64,000 nt of DNA, taken from the NCBI RefSeq assembly GCF_054482525.1, contig NZ_CM137006.1; one strand, 5' to 3'. Shown one piece after another: positions 46,272-63,816 of the stretch (its first letter is position 1; each line of letters begins with the position of its first letter). The notes beneath the pieces were generated by a model, which saw only the letters and a program-made list of their open reading frames with translations, made no database searches and was not told the origin of the DNA. A program made the translations under genes and the position numbers.

Positions 46272-48005
46272 ATGGAAATCATGTTACCAAAAAACACCTT
46301 ATATGACAGAGAGCAAAATGTCTTTTTTGAAAAGGTTACGGCCTTAATTGGCGAAAATGGTGCTGGTAAGTCCTCGATTTTACAATCCGTATTTATTAAC
46401 TGTTTAACAAAAAAATATCTACCAGAAACAAAGGTTGTTTGTTTTTCTTCTGGACAAAATGAGAAATACTCAACGTACTTCTCTGATTATCTTTCTCATG
46501 AAAGGCAAGCAAATAGAGGTCTTAACTTAGATTGTTGTTATTACGATAAATCATGGTCAAAGTTACTAATATTCATATCCACAATTTGTAAATCAAATGG
46601 TCTTGTTAGAAATTTTTTATGTGAGAAAGGCTATATTGATGTATCAGATGATAAAAATGATGATATATCAAGCAAGCTTACATTGACGGTCCGAGTAAAT
46701 TCGGCTTACGTTAATCGAGTAAAAATGGCATTAGCACAAGAAGAACAAGGTATTGAAAATACTTTAAGGTATTCAGCTTATCATAGGACTTTAGAAAGTT
46801 TCATTAATAATATTGTTAATGCTGATTATGATTTCGAGTCTCCACTTGAAGCTCAAGAGATCTTGCTAACTCATTCAAATTTTTTCAATCCATCATTTGA
46901 GGAAGCAGAAGATTCCTTTTTTGATCCTATCATAACATTTTTCACTCAAGCAGCAGATAATGATTACTTTATAATAAAACCATCATTACAGCTAGAGTTT
47001 AAAAATAATATCGAACTGAATGATATTAGTGATGGGGAATATCAAGTACTCTTTTTATACTCTCTGCTTGATATTTTTGATAGTCCTAATACTTTATTCT
47101 TATTAGATGAGATAGATTCCCATTTACATTACAAGAATATTGAGCTCTTATGGCATCGACTACATAGTATTAATGGTTATGCGATAACAACCACCCATCT
47201 ATTAGACTCAATTACAGCTACTGATAATGATTTTAAAAACTTAAAGATTGTTGATAAAGGAAAAATAAAAGAAGATGATAAAATAAAAACTATAATAGAA
47301 CGTTTATCTGTCTTGACAAGAATATCAGACGTACAGTTCGAAGTGTGTCGTAAACTAGAAAACATAGTATTGATGGATGATTATAATGATTGGACTATTT
47401 TTTATGCCTTAGCAAAGAAAAAAGGACTTGATGTATCAAAGTTAGATGGCCTCCATGCAATAAAACAGTCCTCTGGTTACGATAATTTAAATCAAGAGTT
47501 CGCAAAACCAAAAATAGAGTGGATTAATTCGCTTTCAAATGTAAATACTGATAAGAAAGTCAAAAAAATATTCATGATCTGCGACAAAGATGAGGCTCCA
47601 ATTACCTATCAGAAAGATGGAGTTCAAGTCAATGGAAGTGAATATTCAAAACATATAGCGAAGTTAGAAAATAAAAACAAAAATAAAATATATCTCCTTG
47701 CTTGGAAAAGAAGAGAAATAAAAAACTACTTATTATCTTATACGGCATTGTCTCATCATGGATTTATCGGGCAAATAAACAATGGTGATCTGCCGGCTAA
47801 CAGTTATTTAAAAGAAAACAATCCTGGAGATAATTCAGCAATTAGCCGGCTTAATGTAAAACATTGCATCACAAAAATAATTGATTCTGATGGTATAGGA
47901 TTAGATATCTCAAAACTTTACTCATATATAGAACTTATACCACCTGCTGAGATCAGTGAAGATATAGTGAACATGTACAATTTTTTGGTGGAGAAATTAA
48001 AATGA
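46272..48005 (+). CDS. ABC/SMC-type ATPase (AAA_21/OLD-like) with a C-terminal ~240-aa putative nuclease-like (TOPRIM/DUF4435/RloB-like) domain
   Basis: 577-aa ORF in very AT-rich DNA; Walker A GENGAGKSS (aa 27-35), Q-loop FSSGQ, signature-like DISDGEYQVL, Walker B/H-loop LFLLDEIDSHLH; C-terminal region with acidic clusters (VLMDDYND, FMICDKDE) and LAWKRREIKNYLL motif; start M1 vs M4 uncertain. Confidence 0.8.
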   Translation: MEIMLPKNTLYDREQNVFFEKVTALIGENGAGKSSILQSVFINCLTKKYLPETKVVCFSSGQNEKYSTYFSDYLSHERQANRGLNLDCCYYDKSWSKLLIFISTICKSNGLVRNFLCEKGYIDVSDDKNDDISSKLTLTVRVNSAYVNRVKMALAQEEQGIENTLRYSAYHRTLESFINNIVNADYDFESPLEAQEILLTHSNFFNPSFEEAEDSFFDPIITFFTQAADNDYFIIKPSLQLEFKNNIELNDISDGEYQVLFLYSLLDIFDSPNTLFLLDEIDSHLHYKNIELLWHRLHSINGYAITTTHLLDSITATDNDFKNLKIVDKGKIKEDDKIKTIIERLSVLTRISDVQFEVCRKLENIVLMDDYNDWTIFYALAKKKGLDVSKLDGLHAIKQSSGYDNLNQEFAKPKIEWINSLSNVNTDKKVKKIFMICDKDEAPITYQKDGVQVNGSEYSKHIAKLENKNKNKIYLLAWKRREIKNYLLSYTALSHHGFIGQINNGDLPANSYLKENNPGDNSAISRLNVKHCITKIIDSDGIGLDISKLYSYIELIPPAEISEDIVNMYNFLVEKLK

Positions 48006-49909
48006 ACACCTCTTTATTTGAAGATCTACTTACACTAATCAAGAAAAAGAGTTCGATAAGAAATACAGAGCAAGCAGTAGAGTTAATTTCATTATTTATT
48101 TTTTTACATTATATAAAATTATATCTTTATGAAAATGATAAAAGATTTTCAGATATAAAAAACATATCAAGCAACAACATTAATGAAATTAAATATTATT
48201 ACCAGCAACTATATGAAAGTTTTATTTTCTCGATAGATATAAAAAATATAAACCACGACATGCTTGAAAACCTCAGGAGTAAGATAGGTTTTTTAATTAA
48301 TAACATCAATGACCATGAAATAATTAAATATATAGATTATTCTATTTCGCAGATACATTCACTTACAGAATTCCATCAATATGCAAATTCTTATCAATCT
48401 TTAATTCTTAGGATGGTTAATGAATCGGGTCGTTCAGGTGAATATGTTACTCCATCTGCTTTAGTTCAGCTCATGGTTGAAATGTTATCACCTACAGATG
48501 GCACATCAATCTACGACCCAGCATGTGGAACTGGGGGTTTATTAATAGAGTCAGCACGATATATTAAAGGCAACAGTTTAAACAAAAACTTAAATTTAAA
48601 TTATTCCCTTATTGGTAATGACACATCATCATTTGCCTGTCTAATCTCAATTGTTAACCTTTTAATCAATAAAGAATTTAATTTTGAAATAATACTAAAA
48701 GATAGCTTAGATATAAATTATAAGAATAAAAAATATGACTTTGTTTTAACTAACCCACCATTTGGGAAAAAGAGCTGTTGGGATAATATTCATATTGACA
48801 CACATTATAAAGGACCTAATCTAGACTATTACTTCCTGGAGCATGTTATTGACTCTCTCGCTGTTAATGGCAAAGCAGCCATGATATTACCAGAGCGTTT
48901 TTTATATGATGTGAGTGAAGAGTGCATCACTCTTAAAGATAAGATCTTCCAAAATTATAATTTAGATTGTATTTTATCTATACCGTCAGGTGCATTGCTT
49001 CCTTACACTGCAGTAAAATTATGTATTCTTTTTATAAGTAATTCTGGCCCAACAGATAGAATATTTTTCTACAATTTAAATAATGGTGAAAAATACTCAC
49101 GTACAAATATTATAAAATTCGATGATTTTATAGATTTTTTAGAGTCAGCAAAAAATAGAACAATAACTGAACACTCCTGGATTATCAATATTAGTGATAC
49201 ACCTTCATCTTATAACTTACTCTTAAAAGATAAAGAGCGAAACTCATATGAGTTTCTTAGTGATTCTATAGTTAACATTGAACAGACAATACGTAATAAT
49301 GAATTATTACTAACAGAGTTGTCTTTATTAAGAGAAAAAATAGCAATCTTAGAGTCAACAATAAAAAATCATTCGCATGAATATGAATTTGAGAGACTTA
49401 AAGTTGGAAATATTGCAATAGTAAAATCCGGAAATTTATTACAAAAAAACAGGCTGTTACCCACTGGACCAATTCCTGTATACGGTGGAAATGGAGTTAT
49501 TGGATATAATAATGAAGCAATGGAAAATGGTGAAAATATTATTATTGGTAAGGTCGGAGCTCTTTGCGGAAACGTTCGGTATGTTCAAGGTGATATTTGG
49601 GTGACAAATAACTCATTAATTATTAAGAATTATTCACCAAATAAAGTTTTAACACCCTACCTTGCAAAATTATTATCTACTTTAAACTTAAGAAGGCTCG
49701 CCGTTGGTACCGCTCAGCAATATTTAACCACGACACAAATAAAAAATGTAGAAGTTAGTATTCCACCTTTAACGACCCAGTATAAATTAAATATTTGGCT
49801 TGATGAGTTAGATAATACGCTTGAACAATATAATAATCTCATTGAAAAAATAATGAATGATAAGCGAGAACTTAAAGAGAATTTGTATAAAGGTCTTTTA
49901 ATAGAATAG
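48002..49909 (+). CDS. N6-adenine DNA methyltransferase (HsdM-like, gamma class) fused to a single HsdS-type target-recognition domain (M-S fusion)
   Basis: 635-aa ORF overlapping the upstream ATPase gene by 4 nt (ATGA); motif X/I GEYVTPSALVQLMVEMLSPTDGTSIYDPACGTGGLL, motif IV FVLTNPPFGKK, then a TRD with HsdS hallmarks (GNIAIVKSGN...IPVYGGNGVIGY...IPPLTTQYKLNIWLDELDNTLEQ). Confidence 0.85.
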   Translation: MNTSLFEDLLTLIKKKSSIRNTEQAVELISLFIFLHYIKLYLYENDKRFSDIKNISSNNINEIKYYYQQLYESFIFSIDIKNINHDMLENLRSKIGFLINNINDHEIIKYIDYSISQIHSLTEFHQYANSYQSLILRMVNESGRSGEYVTPSALVQLMVEMLSPTDGTSIYDPACGTGGLLIESARYIKGNSLNKNLNLNYSLIGNDTSSFACLISIVNLLINKEFNFEIILKDSLDINYKNKKYDFVLTNPPFGKKSCWDNIHIDTHYKGPNLDYYFLEHVIDSLAVNGKAAMILPERFLYDVSEECITLKDKIFQNYNLDCILSIPSGALLPYTAVKLCILFISNSGPTDRIFFYNLNNGEKYSRTNIIKFDDFIDFLESAKNRTITEHSWIINISDTPSSYNLLLKDKERNSYEFLSDSIVNIEQTIRNNELLLTELSLLREKIAILESTIKNHSHEYEFERLKVGNIAIVKSGNLLQKNRLLPTGPIPVYGGNGVIGYNNEAMENGENIIIGKVGALCGNVRYVQGDIWVTNNSLIIKNYSPNKVLTPYLAKLLSTLNLRRLAVGTAQQYLTTTQIKNVEVSIPPLTTQYKLNIWLDELDNTLEQYNNLIEKIMNDKRELKENLYKGLLIE

Positions 49910-49915
49910 ATCACA

Positions 49916-63113: not shown

Positions 63114-63438
63114 TACCAGTCCTATGACTCAATGAAATCCATTGATTTATCGAATATAAAATCACCGTATGGATAACTATTGTCCACGTTGCAAGGCTGG
63201 CTGCAATGTTTTGTTCACGCTTCGATACAAATACTCAGGTTATACGGAGTTCAGAAAACGACCATATCATGTTGCATGGCACATAAAAGCTTTATAACCG
63301 AAGCAGCAAAGGATTACCGGCTGCGCAGCACGCCCCGAAAGCCCGTGAGCCCTGCTGGACAGCGTTCAGTGCAATATTGGAGCCTGTAAGTTCAGAAAAT
63401 ATCGCTGTCGAAGATGGTTCTGTATGTAGGCGCGCCAG

Positions 63439-63816
63439 CTATCGTTTTGTCCGATGCTTGCGAATAAAAGCATTCAAAATGTCGCCTTCACCATGCATGA
63501 CAGAAAAAGAATATTCACATTCTTTCTTTATCAAGATTCCACATAATTCCTTGTGCAAATCAACATTAACTCCCTTTCCTTTCTGCGCTTTCTTCACACC
63601 GAGCTCACATGAACTGATTAATTCAACGGTACAGGGTTTCTTCAGATAATTCACACCATCAATTAAGCCCTGGAGAATGCATCTATTTGCGGTCGTATCA
63701 CTGTAGGAGAAAGTCAGATATTTTATTTTTCCTTCGTATTCCAACACAACCTCCGCCGAACCTTCACGTGTTGCAGCATCACAACCTCCTGTTGAATATA
63801 TTTTTACCATCTTCAT
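63439..63816 (-). CDS. small RNase HI-like protein with substituted catalytic residues
   Basis: 125-aa ORF; collinear with E. coli RNase HI (VKIYSTGGC vs VEIFTDGSC; TTANRCIL vs TTNNRMEL; ELISSCEL vs ILSTDSQY; GVNVDLHKEL vs KNVDLWQRL), but the Asp/Glu/Asp carboxylate positions read Thr/Ile/Ser. Confidence 0.55.
   Translation of the reverse strand: MKMVKIYSTGGCDAATREGSAEVVLEYEGKIKYLTFSYSDTTANRCILQGLIDGVNYLKKPCTVELISSCELGVKKAQKGKGVNVDLHKELCGILIKKECEYSFSVMHGEGDILNAFIRKHRTKR

Follow-up and report, generated by a model that had tools for sequence, protein, structure and literature searches.

We analyzed a 64,000-nucleotide stretch of DNA (contig NZ_CM137006.1 of assembly GCF_054482525.1; hereafter, the window), in which positions 45.4–64 kb hold an unbroken run of defense genes directly after nanS. 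Very likely, this block represents the nanS-proximal end of a ∼68-kb fill of the Escherichia coli defense hotspot #37 in a PCN033-like strain, has a mosaic make-up, and carries a two-gene cassette, consisting of an ATPase gene and a methyltransferase gene, that is linked to a Type I restriction system. The nanC, nanM and nanS genes lie on the plus strand and are followed by an 862-bp spacer, after which the ATPase gene begins. The features of the block are the following.

45415–46100, minus strand: DpdD pseudogene, the C-terminal ∼215 codons with a frameshift and stops (PADLOC DpdD 1.8e-60, profile positions 515–725 of 729)
46272–48005, plus strand: ABC-type ATPase, 577 aa, with a conserved C-terminal alpha/beta domain that is possibly Toprim-like (OLD-like architecture)
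48002–49909, plus strand: M::S fusion, 635 aa, predicted gamma-class N6-adenine DNA methyltransferase (M) with a single C-terminal target recognition domain of the specificity-subunit (S) type
49914–49948, no strand: perfect 14-bp inverted repeat with a 7-nt loop (repeat search, 100% complementary)
49990–53052, minus strand: hsdR, 1020 aa (NCBIfam TIGR00348 475 bits, cut-off 284; PADLOC REase_I 6.6e-110)
53054–54241, minus strand: hsdS with two target recognition domains (PADLOC Specificity_I 4e-68)
54234–55730, minus strand: hsdM2 of the NPPY/AAEF type, predicted to form N4-methylcytosine (m4C) (981 bits against PDB 7VRU chain B, residues 2–491)
55736–57235, minus strand: hsdM1 of the NPPF/AGEF type, predicted to form N6-methyladenine (m6A) (984 bits against PDB 7VRU chain A, full length)
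57479–58296, plus strand: ThsB-like TIR pseudogene (a pseudogene also in RefSeq)
58481–59470, minus strand: 329-aa protein with an N-terminal PUA-like reader and a C-terminal Mrr_cat PD-(D/E)xK nuclease (Pfam Mrr_cat 3.6e-23)
59598–63113, minus strand: MkoC of Mokosh type II, superfamily 1 (SF1) helicase with a PLD nuclease, 1171 aa (PADLOC MkoC 1692 bits, residues 1–1169 against profile positions 1–1135 of 1136)
63439–63816, minus strand: RNase H-like protein, 125 aa, hypothetical in RefSeq (Pfam RNase_H 7e-5, NCBIfam RNase HI 3e-11)

The initial annotation of this DNA had described positions 46272–63816 as a dense and contiguous defense block, and this description held. An 18-kb query from the window found matches of 100% identity in E. 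coli PCN033 (NZ_CP006632.1, reverse strand) and in strain 19KM1776, and the open reading frames (ORFs) agreed with the PCN033 RefSeq annotation at all coordinates. The initial annotation had also correctly placed the hsd genes on the same strand as fim and had noted the absence of mcrBC and symE from the 64-kb window. The DpdD pseudogene, which adjoins nanS within the nanS–ATPase spacer, was absent from that annotation.

The gene order on the PCN033 chromosome is ahr, tRNA-Leu, integrase, island and nanS. There, leuX (tRNA-Leu) and a tyrosine integrase gene occupy 4,803,690–4,805,226 and nanS lies at 4,872,218, the fill between leuX and nanS being ∼68 kb. The window block forms the nanS-proximal end of this fill; beyond the end of the window we found an HNH_2 endonuclease gene and then ∼50 kb further to leuX. 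In K-12, KpLE2 occupies the space between the same two anchors. Hotspot #37 has been defined as extending from nanS to yjgB at tRNA_Leu_CAA and is occupied in 462 of 475 genomes (97%; Hochhauser et al. 2023, Table S1, PMC10121019); these flanking genes come from the supplementary table, and the main text of that paper mentions neither nanS nor Mokosh. The site is exceptionally diverse, with 31 system types (Hochhauser et al. 2023, PMC10121019), and is the most occupied and the most diverse of the E. coli defense hotspots according to both the text of that paper and a 2025 review, which lists Type I, Dpd, BREX, Dnd and DISARM systems among its contents. We also observed the expected variable occupancy, as the site holds KpLE2 with yjhR in K-12 and DISARM, Mrr and MkoC in APEC20/16. 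We concluded that the window block belongs to the published leuX hotspot #37 and represents what a single strain carries there. The ‘distinct island’ of the initial annotation is indeed accessory DNA, although it does not mark a new locus. As an island it is not a discovery, since it belongs to the best-documented E. coli defense hotspot and most of its genes fall into named families.

Outside the window, the PCN033 fill includes a second Type I system, in which an ABC ATPase is embedded, a dGTPase gene (PADLOC 2e-109) and a CP4-like module with YeeU/CbtA, RadC, an antirestriction protein, IS2 and IS100. These lie partly in the leuX-proximal segments at 4808592–4817369 and 4824010–4825242 of the PCN033 record (L003:18593–27370 and L003:34011–35243), where the second Type I system is followed by the ABC ATPase (PADLOC PDC-M55A/NsnB/AriA-like) and then by a 298-aa protein without a match; the leuX-proximal part also encodes the dGTPase defense protein as well as MazG-like and thymidylate synthase-like proteins.

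In K-12, the immigration control region (ICR; hotspot #36) lies between yjiS/yjiT and yjiA and carries the EcoKI-family hsdRMS, mrr and mcrBC. The window block is situated in the same chromosomal quarter and also has a Type I system and an Mrr-type nuclease, and could in principle be read as core E. coli DNA or as a rearranged copy of the K-12 ICR. However, the ICR site of PCN033 (yjiS to yjiA; window 1–1366 and 1723–1887, both minus strand; L002:29741–33836) is identifiable on its own and holds a penicillin G acylase gene only, the 5′ part of which is found at 1–1366 of the window; hsd, mrr, mcrBC and symE were not found at this yjiS–yjiA site. The HsdM proteins of the window share 25–27% identity with EcoKI HsdM, its HsdR gave no match to EcoKI HsdR at E 1e-3, and its Mrr nuclease is 28% identical to K-12 Mrr over 94 residues. 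Moreover, the block occurs in ∼2% of complete genomes, and K-12 and PCN033 cease to be similar in sequence at the nanS stop codon. The distribution, the content of the ICR site and the low identities together refute this reading, to which we assign practically no probability, and the initial annotation was right to keep the island apart from the K-12 ICR.

We next determined the distribution of the parts of the block by megablast against 5,426 complete E. coli genomes. The whole block was present in ∼100 of them, and the counts for its segments were as follows.

Spacer with the DpdD fragment: 102 genomes
ATPase–M::S: 102 genomes
Type I operon: 109 genomes (88 at a coverage of at least 80%; hsdS is the variable part)
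TIR and Mrr genes: 148 genomes (99 at a coverage of at least 80%)
MkoC region: 888 genomes

The carriers of the DpdD fragment are exactly the same 102 genomes as those of the ATPase–M::S pair. In APEC20/16, the order is leuX, an integrase remnant, HNH, RNase H-like, MkoC, Mrr and then DISARM, and by this gene order the HNH-to-Mrr block is leuX-proximal in that strain. In two other strains, 5-1 and the type strain ATCC 11775, the MkoC allele of the window adjoins the integrase of tRNA-Phe islands. These observations support an accessory rather than a core island, and it is the unequal distribution of the segments, and not their GC content, that supports a mosaic assembly.

A mosaic of this kind would result from accretion at leuX together with replacement of blocks. 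In PCN033, a younger ∼50-kb element with its own integrase would have come to separate the HNH-to-Mrr block from leuX, and the ATPase–M::S cassette and the Type I system would have entered as a linked unit and not as two arrivals. One observation weighs against this scheme. The search for boundaries beyond the window, which the initial annotation had proposed, did find leuX and the integrase, but it found no leuX-derived direct repeat at the inner junctions: an 18-mer searched in the window and a 23-mer searched in the flanking PCN033 loci (L001 and L003), with up to three mismatches, returned leuX itself only. A tRNA gene search of the 64-kb window also returned none. As no leuX-derived repeat marks the inner boundaries, the order of accretion is drawn from comparison only.

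The Type I system of the block could be assigned to a family with some precision. PDB 7VRU is the structure of PacII M1M2S, a non-canonical Type I methyltransferase in which M1 produces m6A and M2 produces m4C (Zhu et al. 2022, PMC9613975). PacII-type systems are recognized by the AGEF and NPPF motifs of M1, the AAEF and NPPY motifs of M2 and a conserved arginine (PMC9613975), and the order M1-M2-S-R is conserved in the m4C/m6A Type I family (Morgan et al. 2016, PMC5100572; a term search of this paper found no mention of an ATPase). In the window, HsdM1 and HsdM2 are 49% identical to each other and both have kept the S-adenosylmethionine (SAM)-binding and catalytic motifs, while AAEF, NPPY and the arginine of M2 that is aligned with PacII M2 R29 are visible in the alignment to 7VRU chain B, as are AGEF and NPPF of M1 in that to chain A. 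As all of these features are found in its sequence, the hsdMMSR operon is classed as a PacII-family Type I system. Its M1, M2 and R proteins are 86–87% identical between E. coli and Vibrio crassostreae (HsdR 86%), compared with only 25% for hsdS, which also drops out in megablast of E. coli relatives (83% query cover). The M1M2S complex is predicted to place m6A on one strand and m4C on the other strand of a bipartite site, and HsdR would cut unmodified DNA. The PCN033-like lineage should consequently carry m4C/m6A Type I methylation, which matters for the transformation of such strains. At two other loci (L015 and L016, 9001–18302) we observed a PacII-like system having two extra genes, for a DUF4062 protein and a 484-aa protein, between M1 and M2, which is another case of genes embedded within an M1-M2-S-R array.

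The hsd operon converges with the ATPase–M::S cassette, and the 80 bp that separate the stop codons of M::S and hsdR contain the 14-bp hairpin, which is probably a bidirectional terminator. The two genes of the cassette overlap by 4 bp (M::S start and ATPase stop), and both have only generic public names. M::S matches Pfam N6_Mtase over residues 130–399 and Methylase_S over residues 462–617, with the motifs DPACGTGG and NPPF intact. For the ATPase, Pfam recognizes an ABC-type head only (AAA_21 and SMC_N over residues 1–300). We built an AlphaFold model from 29 homologues (pLDDT 87.7), and Foldseek placed the OLD nuclease (6p74), Gabija GajA and retron Eco8, all of which are ATPase–Toprim proteins, at the top of its matches, with PtuA and AriA lower. 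The ABC ATPase head is of the OLD/PARIS-like type.

The C-terminal 220 residues of the ATPase show a beta-alpha repeat pattern over residues 364–477, and seven residues (D369, D373, D438, D440, R481, E482 and K484) do not vary among 13 divergent homologues. From the model, this domain possibly has a Toprim fold. It gave no match to Pfam, to PADLOC (C-terminal 224 residues alone) or to PDB profiles; a sequence-level PDB search with the ATPase gave nothing useful, and its alignment profile matched ABC motifs only. The best PADLOC match was AriA at 1e-14, over the ATPase part only, and no family-level model for this protein was found in PADLOC v2, the AriA, AriAB and HEC families included. We have also considered and rejected MADS (mad1–8), as MAD2 (59 bits, cut-off 720) and MAD5 (41 bits, cut-off 400) scored far too low and the PADLOC mad2 and mad3 matches were partial.

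We compared the domains of M::S between genera (L008, L014, L017–L019, L036, L038, L043–L046, L049, L052 and L054). The recognition domain is 35–57% identical, the catalytic domain 31–48% and the N-terminus 14–38%. Specificity subunits of restriction systems normally show the opposite pattern. That the recognition domain is more conserved than the catalytic domain argues against the usual diversification of specificity in restriction-modification (RM) systems.

The genomic context of the cassette was then surveyed in one genome per GTDB species, which yielded 37 loci, parsed by BLAST. An ATPase gene followed by M::S was present at 13 of these, one of them having a truncated ATPase at a contig end; together with the loci of V. 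crassostreae (L014) and Acinetobacter (L008), 11 had upstream sequence. A Type I hsdR gene lay immediately upstream of ATPase–M::S in 9 of these 11 informative loci. In six of the nine (four Vibrio species, an Oceanospirillaceae metagenome-assembled genome and Thalassotalea), it belonged to a PacII-like M1-M2-S-R array, and M1-M2-S-R-ATPase-M::S were co-directional with gaps of 0–22 bp; another Type I hsdR was directly upstream in the remaining three. The six genes of V. crassostreae all point the same way and either overlap or are separated by small gaps, whereas Acinetobacter radioresistens has mcrBC between its hsdR and ATPase genes. The cassette and the Type I system are thus a recurrent linked pair.

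At ∼24 loci the survey revealed a different arrangement, with hsdR (Type IB-like, 771 aa), an ATPase of ∼598 aa, hsdM and hsdS, and sometimes a further protein of ∼650 aa. This ∼598-aa ATPase forms a sister clade that, in ∼24 species (L020–L035, L039–L042, L047, L048 and L053; also L005–L007, L010 and L011), is embedded in Type IB-like systems with hsdR on one side and hsdM on the other. The further protein, conserved and ∼650–670 aa long without a Pfam domain, is often 3′ of hsdS in these arrays. At the E. coli and Shewanella-like loci, the Type IB-like array occupies a cargo slot flanked by resolvase, RhuM and MobI.

The initial annotation had taken the base composition as a sign of stepwise acquisition. 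The contrast itself is real, the GC content being 30.7% for the ATPase gene and 29.1% for M::S against 43–47% for hsdR, M2 and M1, with 47.9% in the window left of nanS. If this inference were right, five or more modules would each have been acquired separately, and the arrivals of ATPase/M::S and of the Type I system would have been separated in time. Besides the GC values, such a history would suit the facts that the pair can stand alone, as in Psychrobacter, that it adjoins at least three unrelated Type I families, that in E. coli the pair and hsd lie on opposite strands, and that hsd is found in seven more genomes than the pair (109 versus 102). However, the same split (32–35% for the pair versus 44%) exists within the single co-directional six-gene arrays of four Vibrio species, and ATPase–M::S has 28–35% GC in 12 of the 12 loci examined, where the host or flanking DNA has 36–57% and the adjacent Type I genes 37–51%. 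As its GC content is low in every host, even within single operons, composition carries no timing information for the cassette. Low GC is a stable trait of the cassette, and base composition is an unsafe clock of acquisition here; this part of the initial annotation did not survive the comparison. In addition, the whole convergent layout of E. coli recurs in Salmonella, the TIR gene beyond M1 included, with an ATPase that is 89% identical, which argues for transfer as one block, and co-occurrence in E. coli is near-complete. Separate arrival is therefore unlikely, and we favor the linked pair.

The cassette and the Type I system are possibly even a single composite system. Two observations weigh against a functional coupling this close. 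In Psychrobacter, an intact cassette stands alone between the housekeeping genes ylqF and mutY, and in enterics the cassette is inverted relative to hsdR. A search for inverted repeats flanking ATPase–M::S, as scars of an inversion relative to Vibrio, found AT-rich chance pairs and the intergenic hairpin only.

What might the cassette do? Our working proposal, which we put forward tentatively and at somewhat less than even confidence, is that the ATPase and the methyltransferase that follows it are a distinct, unnamed accessory module of Type I systems, acting either as an OLD-like nuclease or as an anti-restriction guard. The conservation of such a module would span the Gammaproteobacteria and reach further, to Neisseriaceae, Pusillimonas and Oxalobacter. 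If this is true, the PacII-type system and the cassette would make one six-gene, three-methylase defense unit. Both candidate mechanisms, the autonomous OLD-like nuclease and the Type I guard, are ones that we infer, and each can also be considered by itself.

As a self-contained RM-like module, M::S would dimerize and methylate a fixed site, and the C-terminal metal-binding domain of the ATPase would cut unmarked DNA in the manner of OLD, replacing HsdR. The intact stand-alone pair between ylqF and mutY, the 4-bp overlap of the genes, the intact methylase motifs, the invariant acidic residues of the ATPase C-terminal domain and the best structural matches to OLD and GajA are all consistent with this. 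On the other hand, the recognition domain is more conserved than the catalytic one, opposite to hsdS (25%) versus M1 and M2 (86–87%); the Toprim fold is no more than a possible one; and an hsdR gene, needless for an autonomous system, precedes the pair in 9 of 11 informative loci. A self-contained module is therefore somewhat unlikely in our estimate.

In the second mechanism, the cassette would be a back-up guard of Type I restriction, whose ATPase senses DNA mimics like Ocr and ArdA, or a disabled methylase complex, and triggers a nuclease; the same explanation would extend to the related ATPase between hsdR and hsdM of the Type IB loci. Guard logic of this type is known for PARIS and PrrC. 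The ATPase gene is immediately 3′ of hsdR in ∼33 of the 37 loci, in two architectures, and its product, an ABC ATPase, has AriA, PtuA and GajA as distant relatives. A recognition domain that is conserved and does not diversify suits a bait more than a determinant of specificity, Ocr and ArdA do bind PacII M1M2S (PMC9613975), and embedded ABC-ATPase–Toprim fusions are validated defenses (HEC-04; bioRxiv 2024.01.29.577857). This is nevertheless an argument from context alone. The AriA match is weak and confined to the ATPase part, with no AriA/AriAB/HEC family-level match, the stand-alone pair of Psychrobacter has no Type I system to guard, and a bait would have no clear need for intact SAM-binding and catalytic motifs. 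We regard the guard as quite doubtful when taken by itself.

The cassette is the only part of the island with real novelty potential. Together with the related Type IB-embedded ATPase, it is a recurrent partner of Type I hsdR genes and a candidate for an embedded defense or an anti-anti-restriction system.

Among the remaining genes of the block, two are dead. The conceptual translation of the DpdD pseudogene also matches NCBIfam NF041061 at 2e-40; this frameshifted C-terminal fragment is all that is left here of a dpdA–K cluster, and its similarity identifies it as a fossil of a 7-deazaguanine Dpd system. It documents turnover at the hotspot, and fits the presence of Dpd at hotspot #37 in ∼2% of strains (2025 review). 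The ThsB-like TIR gene, correctly called a remnant at the outset, has an intact 345-aa allele in strain W4 that matches PADLOC ThsB1 end to end at 2e-153. Compared with this allele, the window copy has a +12-bp expansion of a GATCCT repeat, two nonsense changes and a 230-bp deletion. The hexamer run, at 57714–57745 with two more copies than in W4, looks slippage-prone, the gene being also broken elsewhere. There is no ThsA gene beside the TIR gene in E. coli W4 or PCN033, where its neighbors are hsdM1 and the Mrr nuclease gene, and only the start of the Salmonella TIR gene was in view. With a TIR pseudogene and no adjacent ThsA, the window does not have a Thoeris system. A Thoeris system having the Mrr nuclease as a new effector was also considered and rejected, because the two genes are convergent, Mrr occurs without TIR in other strains and PDC-S02, the PADLOC family of the Mrr protein, is a single-gene candidate.

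The 329-aa protein is named ‘restriction endonuclease’ in RefSeq and matches PDC-S02 at 1.8e-82. PDC-S02 is a PADLOC candidate family and not a validated system, a point against our reading of the block. The initial name, EVE-Mrr, was accurate for the Mrr_cat nuclease; for the reader domain, EVE is supported at the level of the PUA-like superfamily only. Pfam EVE (PF01878) did not match the protein at E≤10, the SRA model did not match it, and a sequence-level PDB search gave no match. An AlphaFold2 model from 69 homologues (pLDDT 93) had MspJI and AspBHI as the best whole-protein Foldseek matches, and its N-terminal domain matched YTH domains ahead of the EVE-domain protein 1zce (E 0.03, target TM 0.45). 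The supported description is thus that of an Mrr nuclease to which a PUA-like reader of modified bases is fused, and the enzyme is predicted to cut DNA with modified bases in a Type IV-like manner.

The 1171-aa protein, an ‘AAA domain-containing protein’ in RefSeq, has the motifs GPPGTGKT (Walker A) at 295, DEAGQ at 701 and [11 protein letters not shown] at 1114, and Walker A, Walker B and the C-terminal PLD HKD motif are intact. Judged by its profile match and motifs, it is an intact MkoC of Mokosh type II, a system reportedly described by Millman et al. in 2022 and with a model in PADLOC-DB. In K-12, the yjhR pseudogene (record 4535015–4536031; L004:41016–42032), which is convergent with nanS, preserves the last 338 aa of a diverged MkoC homologue. 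With residues 834–1171 of the window MkoC (59598–60611), the PLD domain included, yjhR shares 67% identity, and it can be annotated as a Mokosh type II remnant. In the tRNA-Phe islands of ATCC 11775 and strain 5-1 (L012:9001–14503 and L057:7001–12503), MkoC is the first cargo gene after the integrase, and pap fimbrial genes lie in the same islands.

RNase HI homology of the 125-aa ORF, as initially reported, is present over the N-terminal ∼70 residues only. Aligned with E. coli RNase HI, the protein has T, I and S in place of D10, E48 and D70 and ends before D134. Lacking the DEDD carboxylates in this alignment, the ORF is judged catalytically degenerate. Its neighbor just past the window end matches Pfam HNH_2, and the RNase H-like/HNH_2 pair travels with MkoC in some strains only.

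The initial annotation had counted at least five modules. Their identities were broadly right, but four are intact, or three if ATPase/M::S and the Type I system are one unit, because two of the features, the TIR gene and the DpdD fragment, are dead and a third, the RNase H-like ORF, lacks catalytic residues. In the strain, unmodified DNA would be covered by the Type I system and modified DNA by the PUA-Mrr nuclease, and Mokosh would provide an independent helicase–PLD route. What the analysis shows are the identities of the genes, their locus, their distribution and the linkage of cassette and Type I system, whereas the biochemical activities and the sequence of events are inferred. Elsewhere in the window, at 15146–20386 on the plus strand, a 1746-aa inverse autotransporter (annotated iatD) is encoded between yjiJ and kptA.

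Finally, we compared the island and its modules with known systems. The PCN033 island shares with hotspot #37 the same flanking genes, the same tRNA anchor and an integrase at the leuX end, and like it contains several defense systems, with Type I, Dpd and DISARM content as reported. It differs in that the PCN033-type combination, namely a PacII-type Type I system, the ATPase–M::S cassette, PUA-Mrr and Mokosh II with dead ThsB and DpdD genes, is found in only ∼100 of the 5,426 genomes. For Mokosh type II, a single SF1 helicase–PLD protein with a full-length MkoC profile match, we detected no difference. Intact TIR alleles match the Thoeris ThsB1 profile end to end, unlike Thoeris the gene has no adjacent ThsA in E. 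coli W4 and PCN033, and the window copy is disrupted several times. The PUA-Mrr protein resembles MspJI, AspBHI and the EVE/YTH–nuclease fusions in having an N-terminal PUA-like reader followed by a PD-(D/E)xK nuclease; in contrast to MspJI and AspBHI, its nuclease belongs to Pfam Mrr_cat, and it has no EVE, SRA or sequence-level PDB match.

The hsdMMSR operon has in common with the PacII/Sen483I family (PDB 7VRU/7VS4) the order M1(NPPF)-M2(NPPY)-S-R, the AGEF/AAEF motifs and the equivalent of M2 R29, whereas it has its own hsdS and is flanked by the ATPase–M::S cassette. The ATPase of this cassette shares an ABC ATPase head, a conserved acidic C-terminal domain and an embedded position beside hsdR with OLD, PARIS (AriA/AriB), Gabija GajA and HEC-04. 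It differs from them in having no family-level hidden Markov model match and in being always followed by a methyltransferase, either M::S or M and S.

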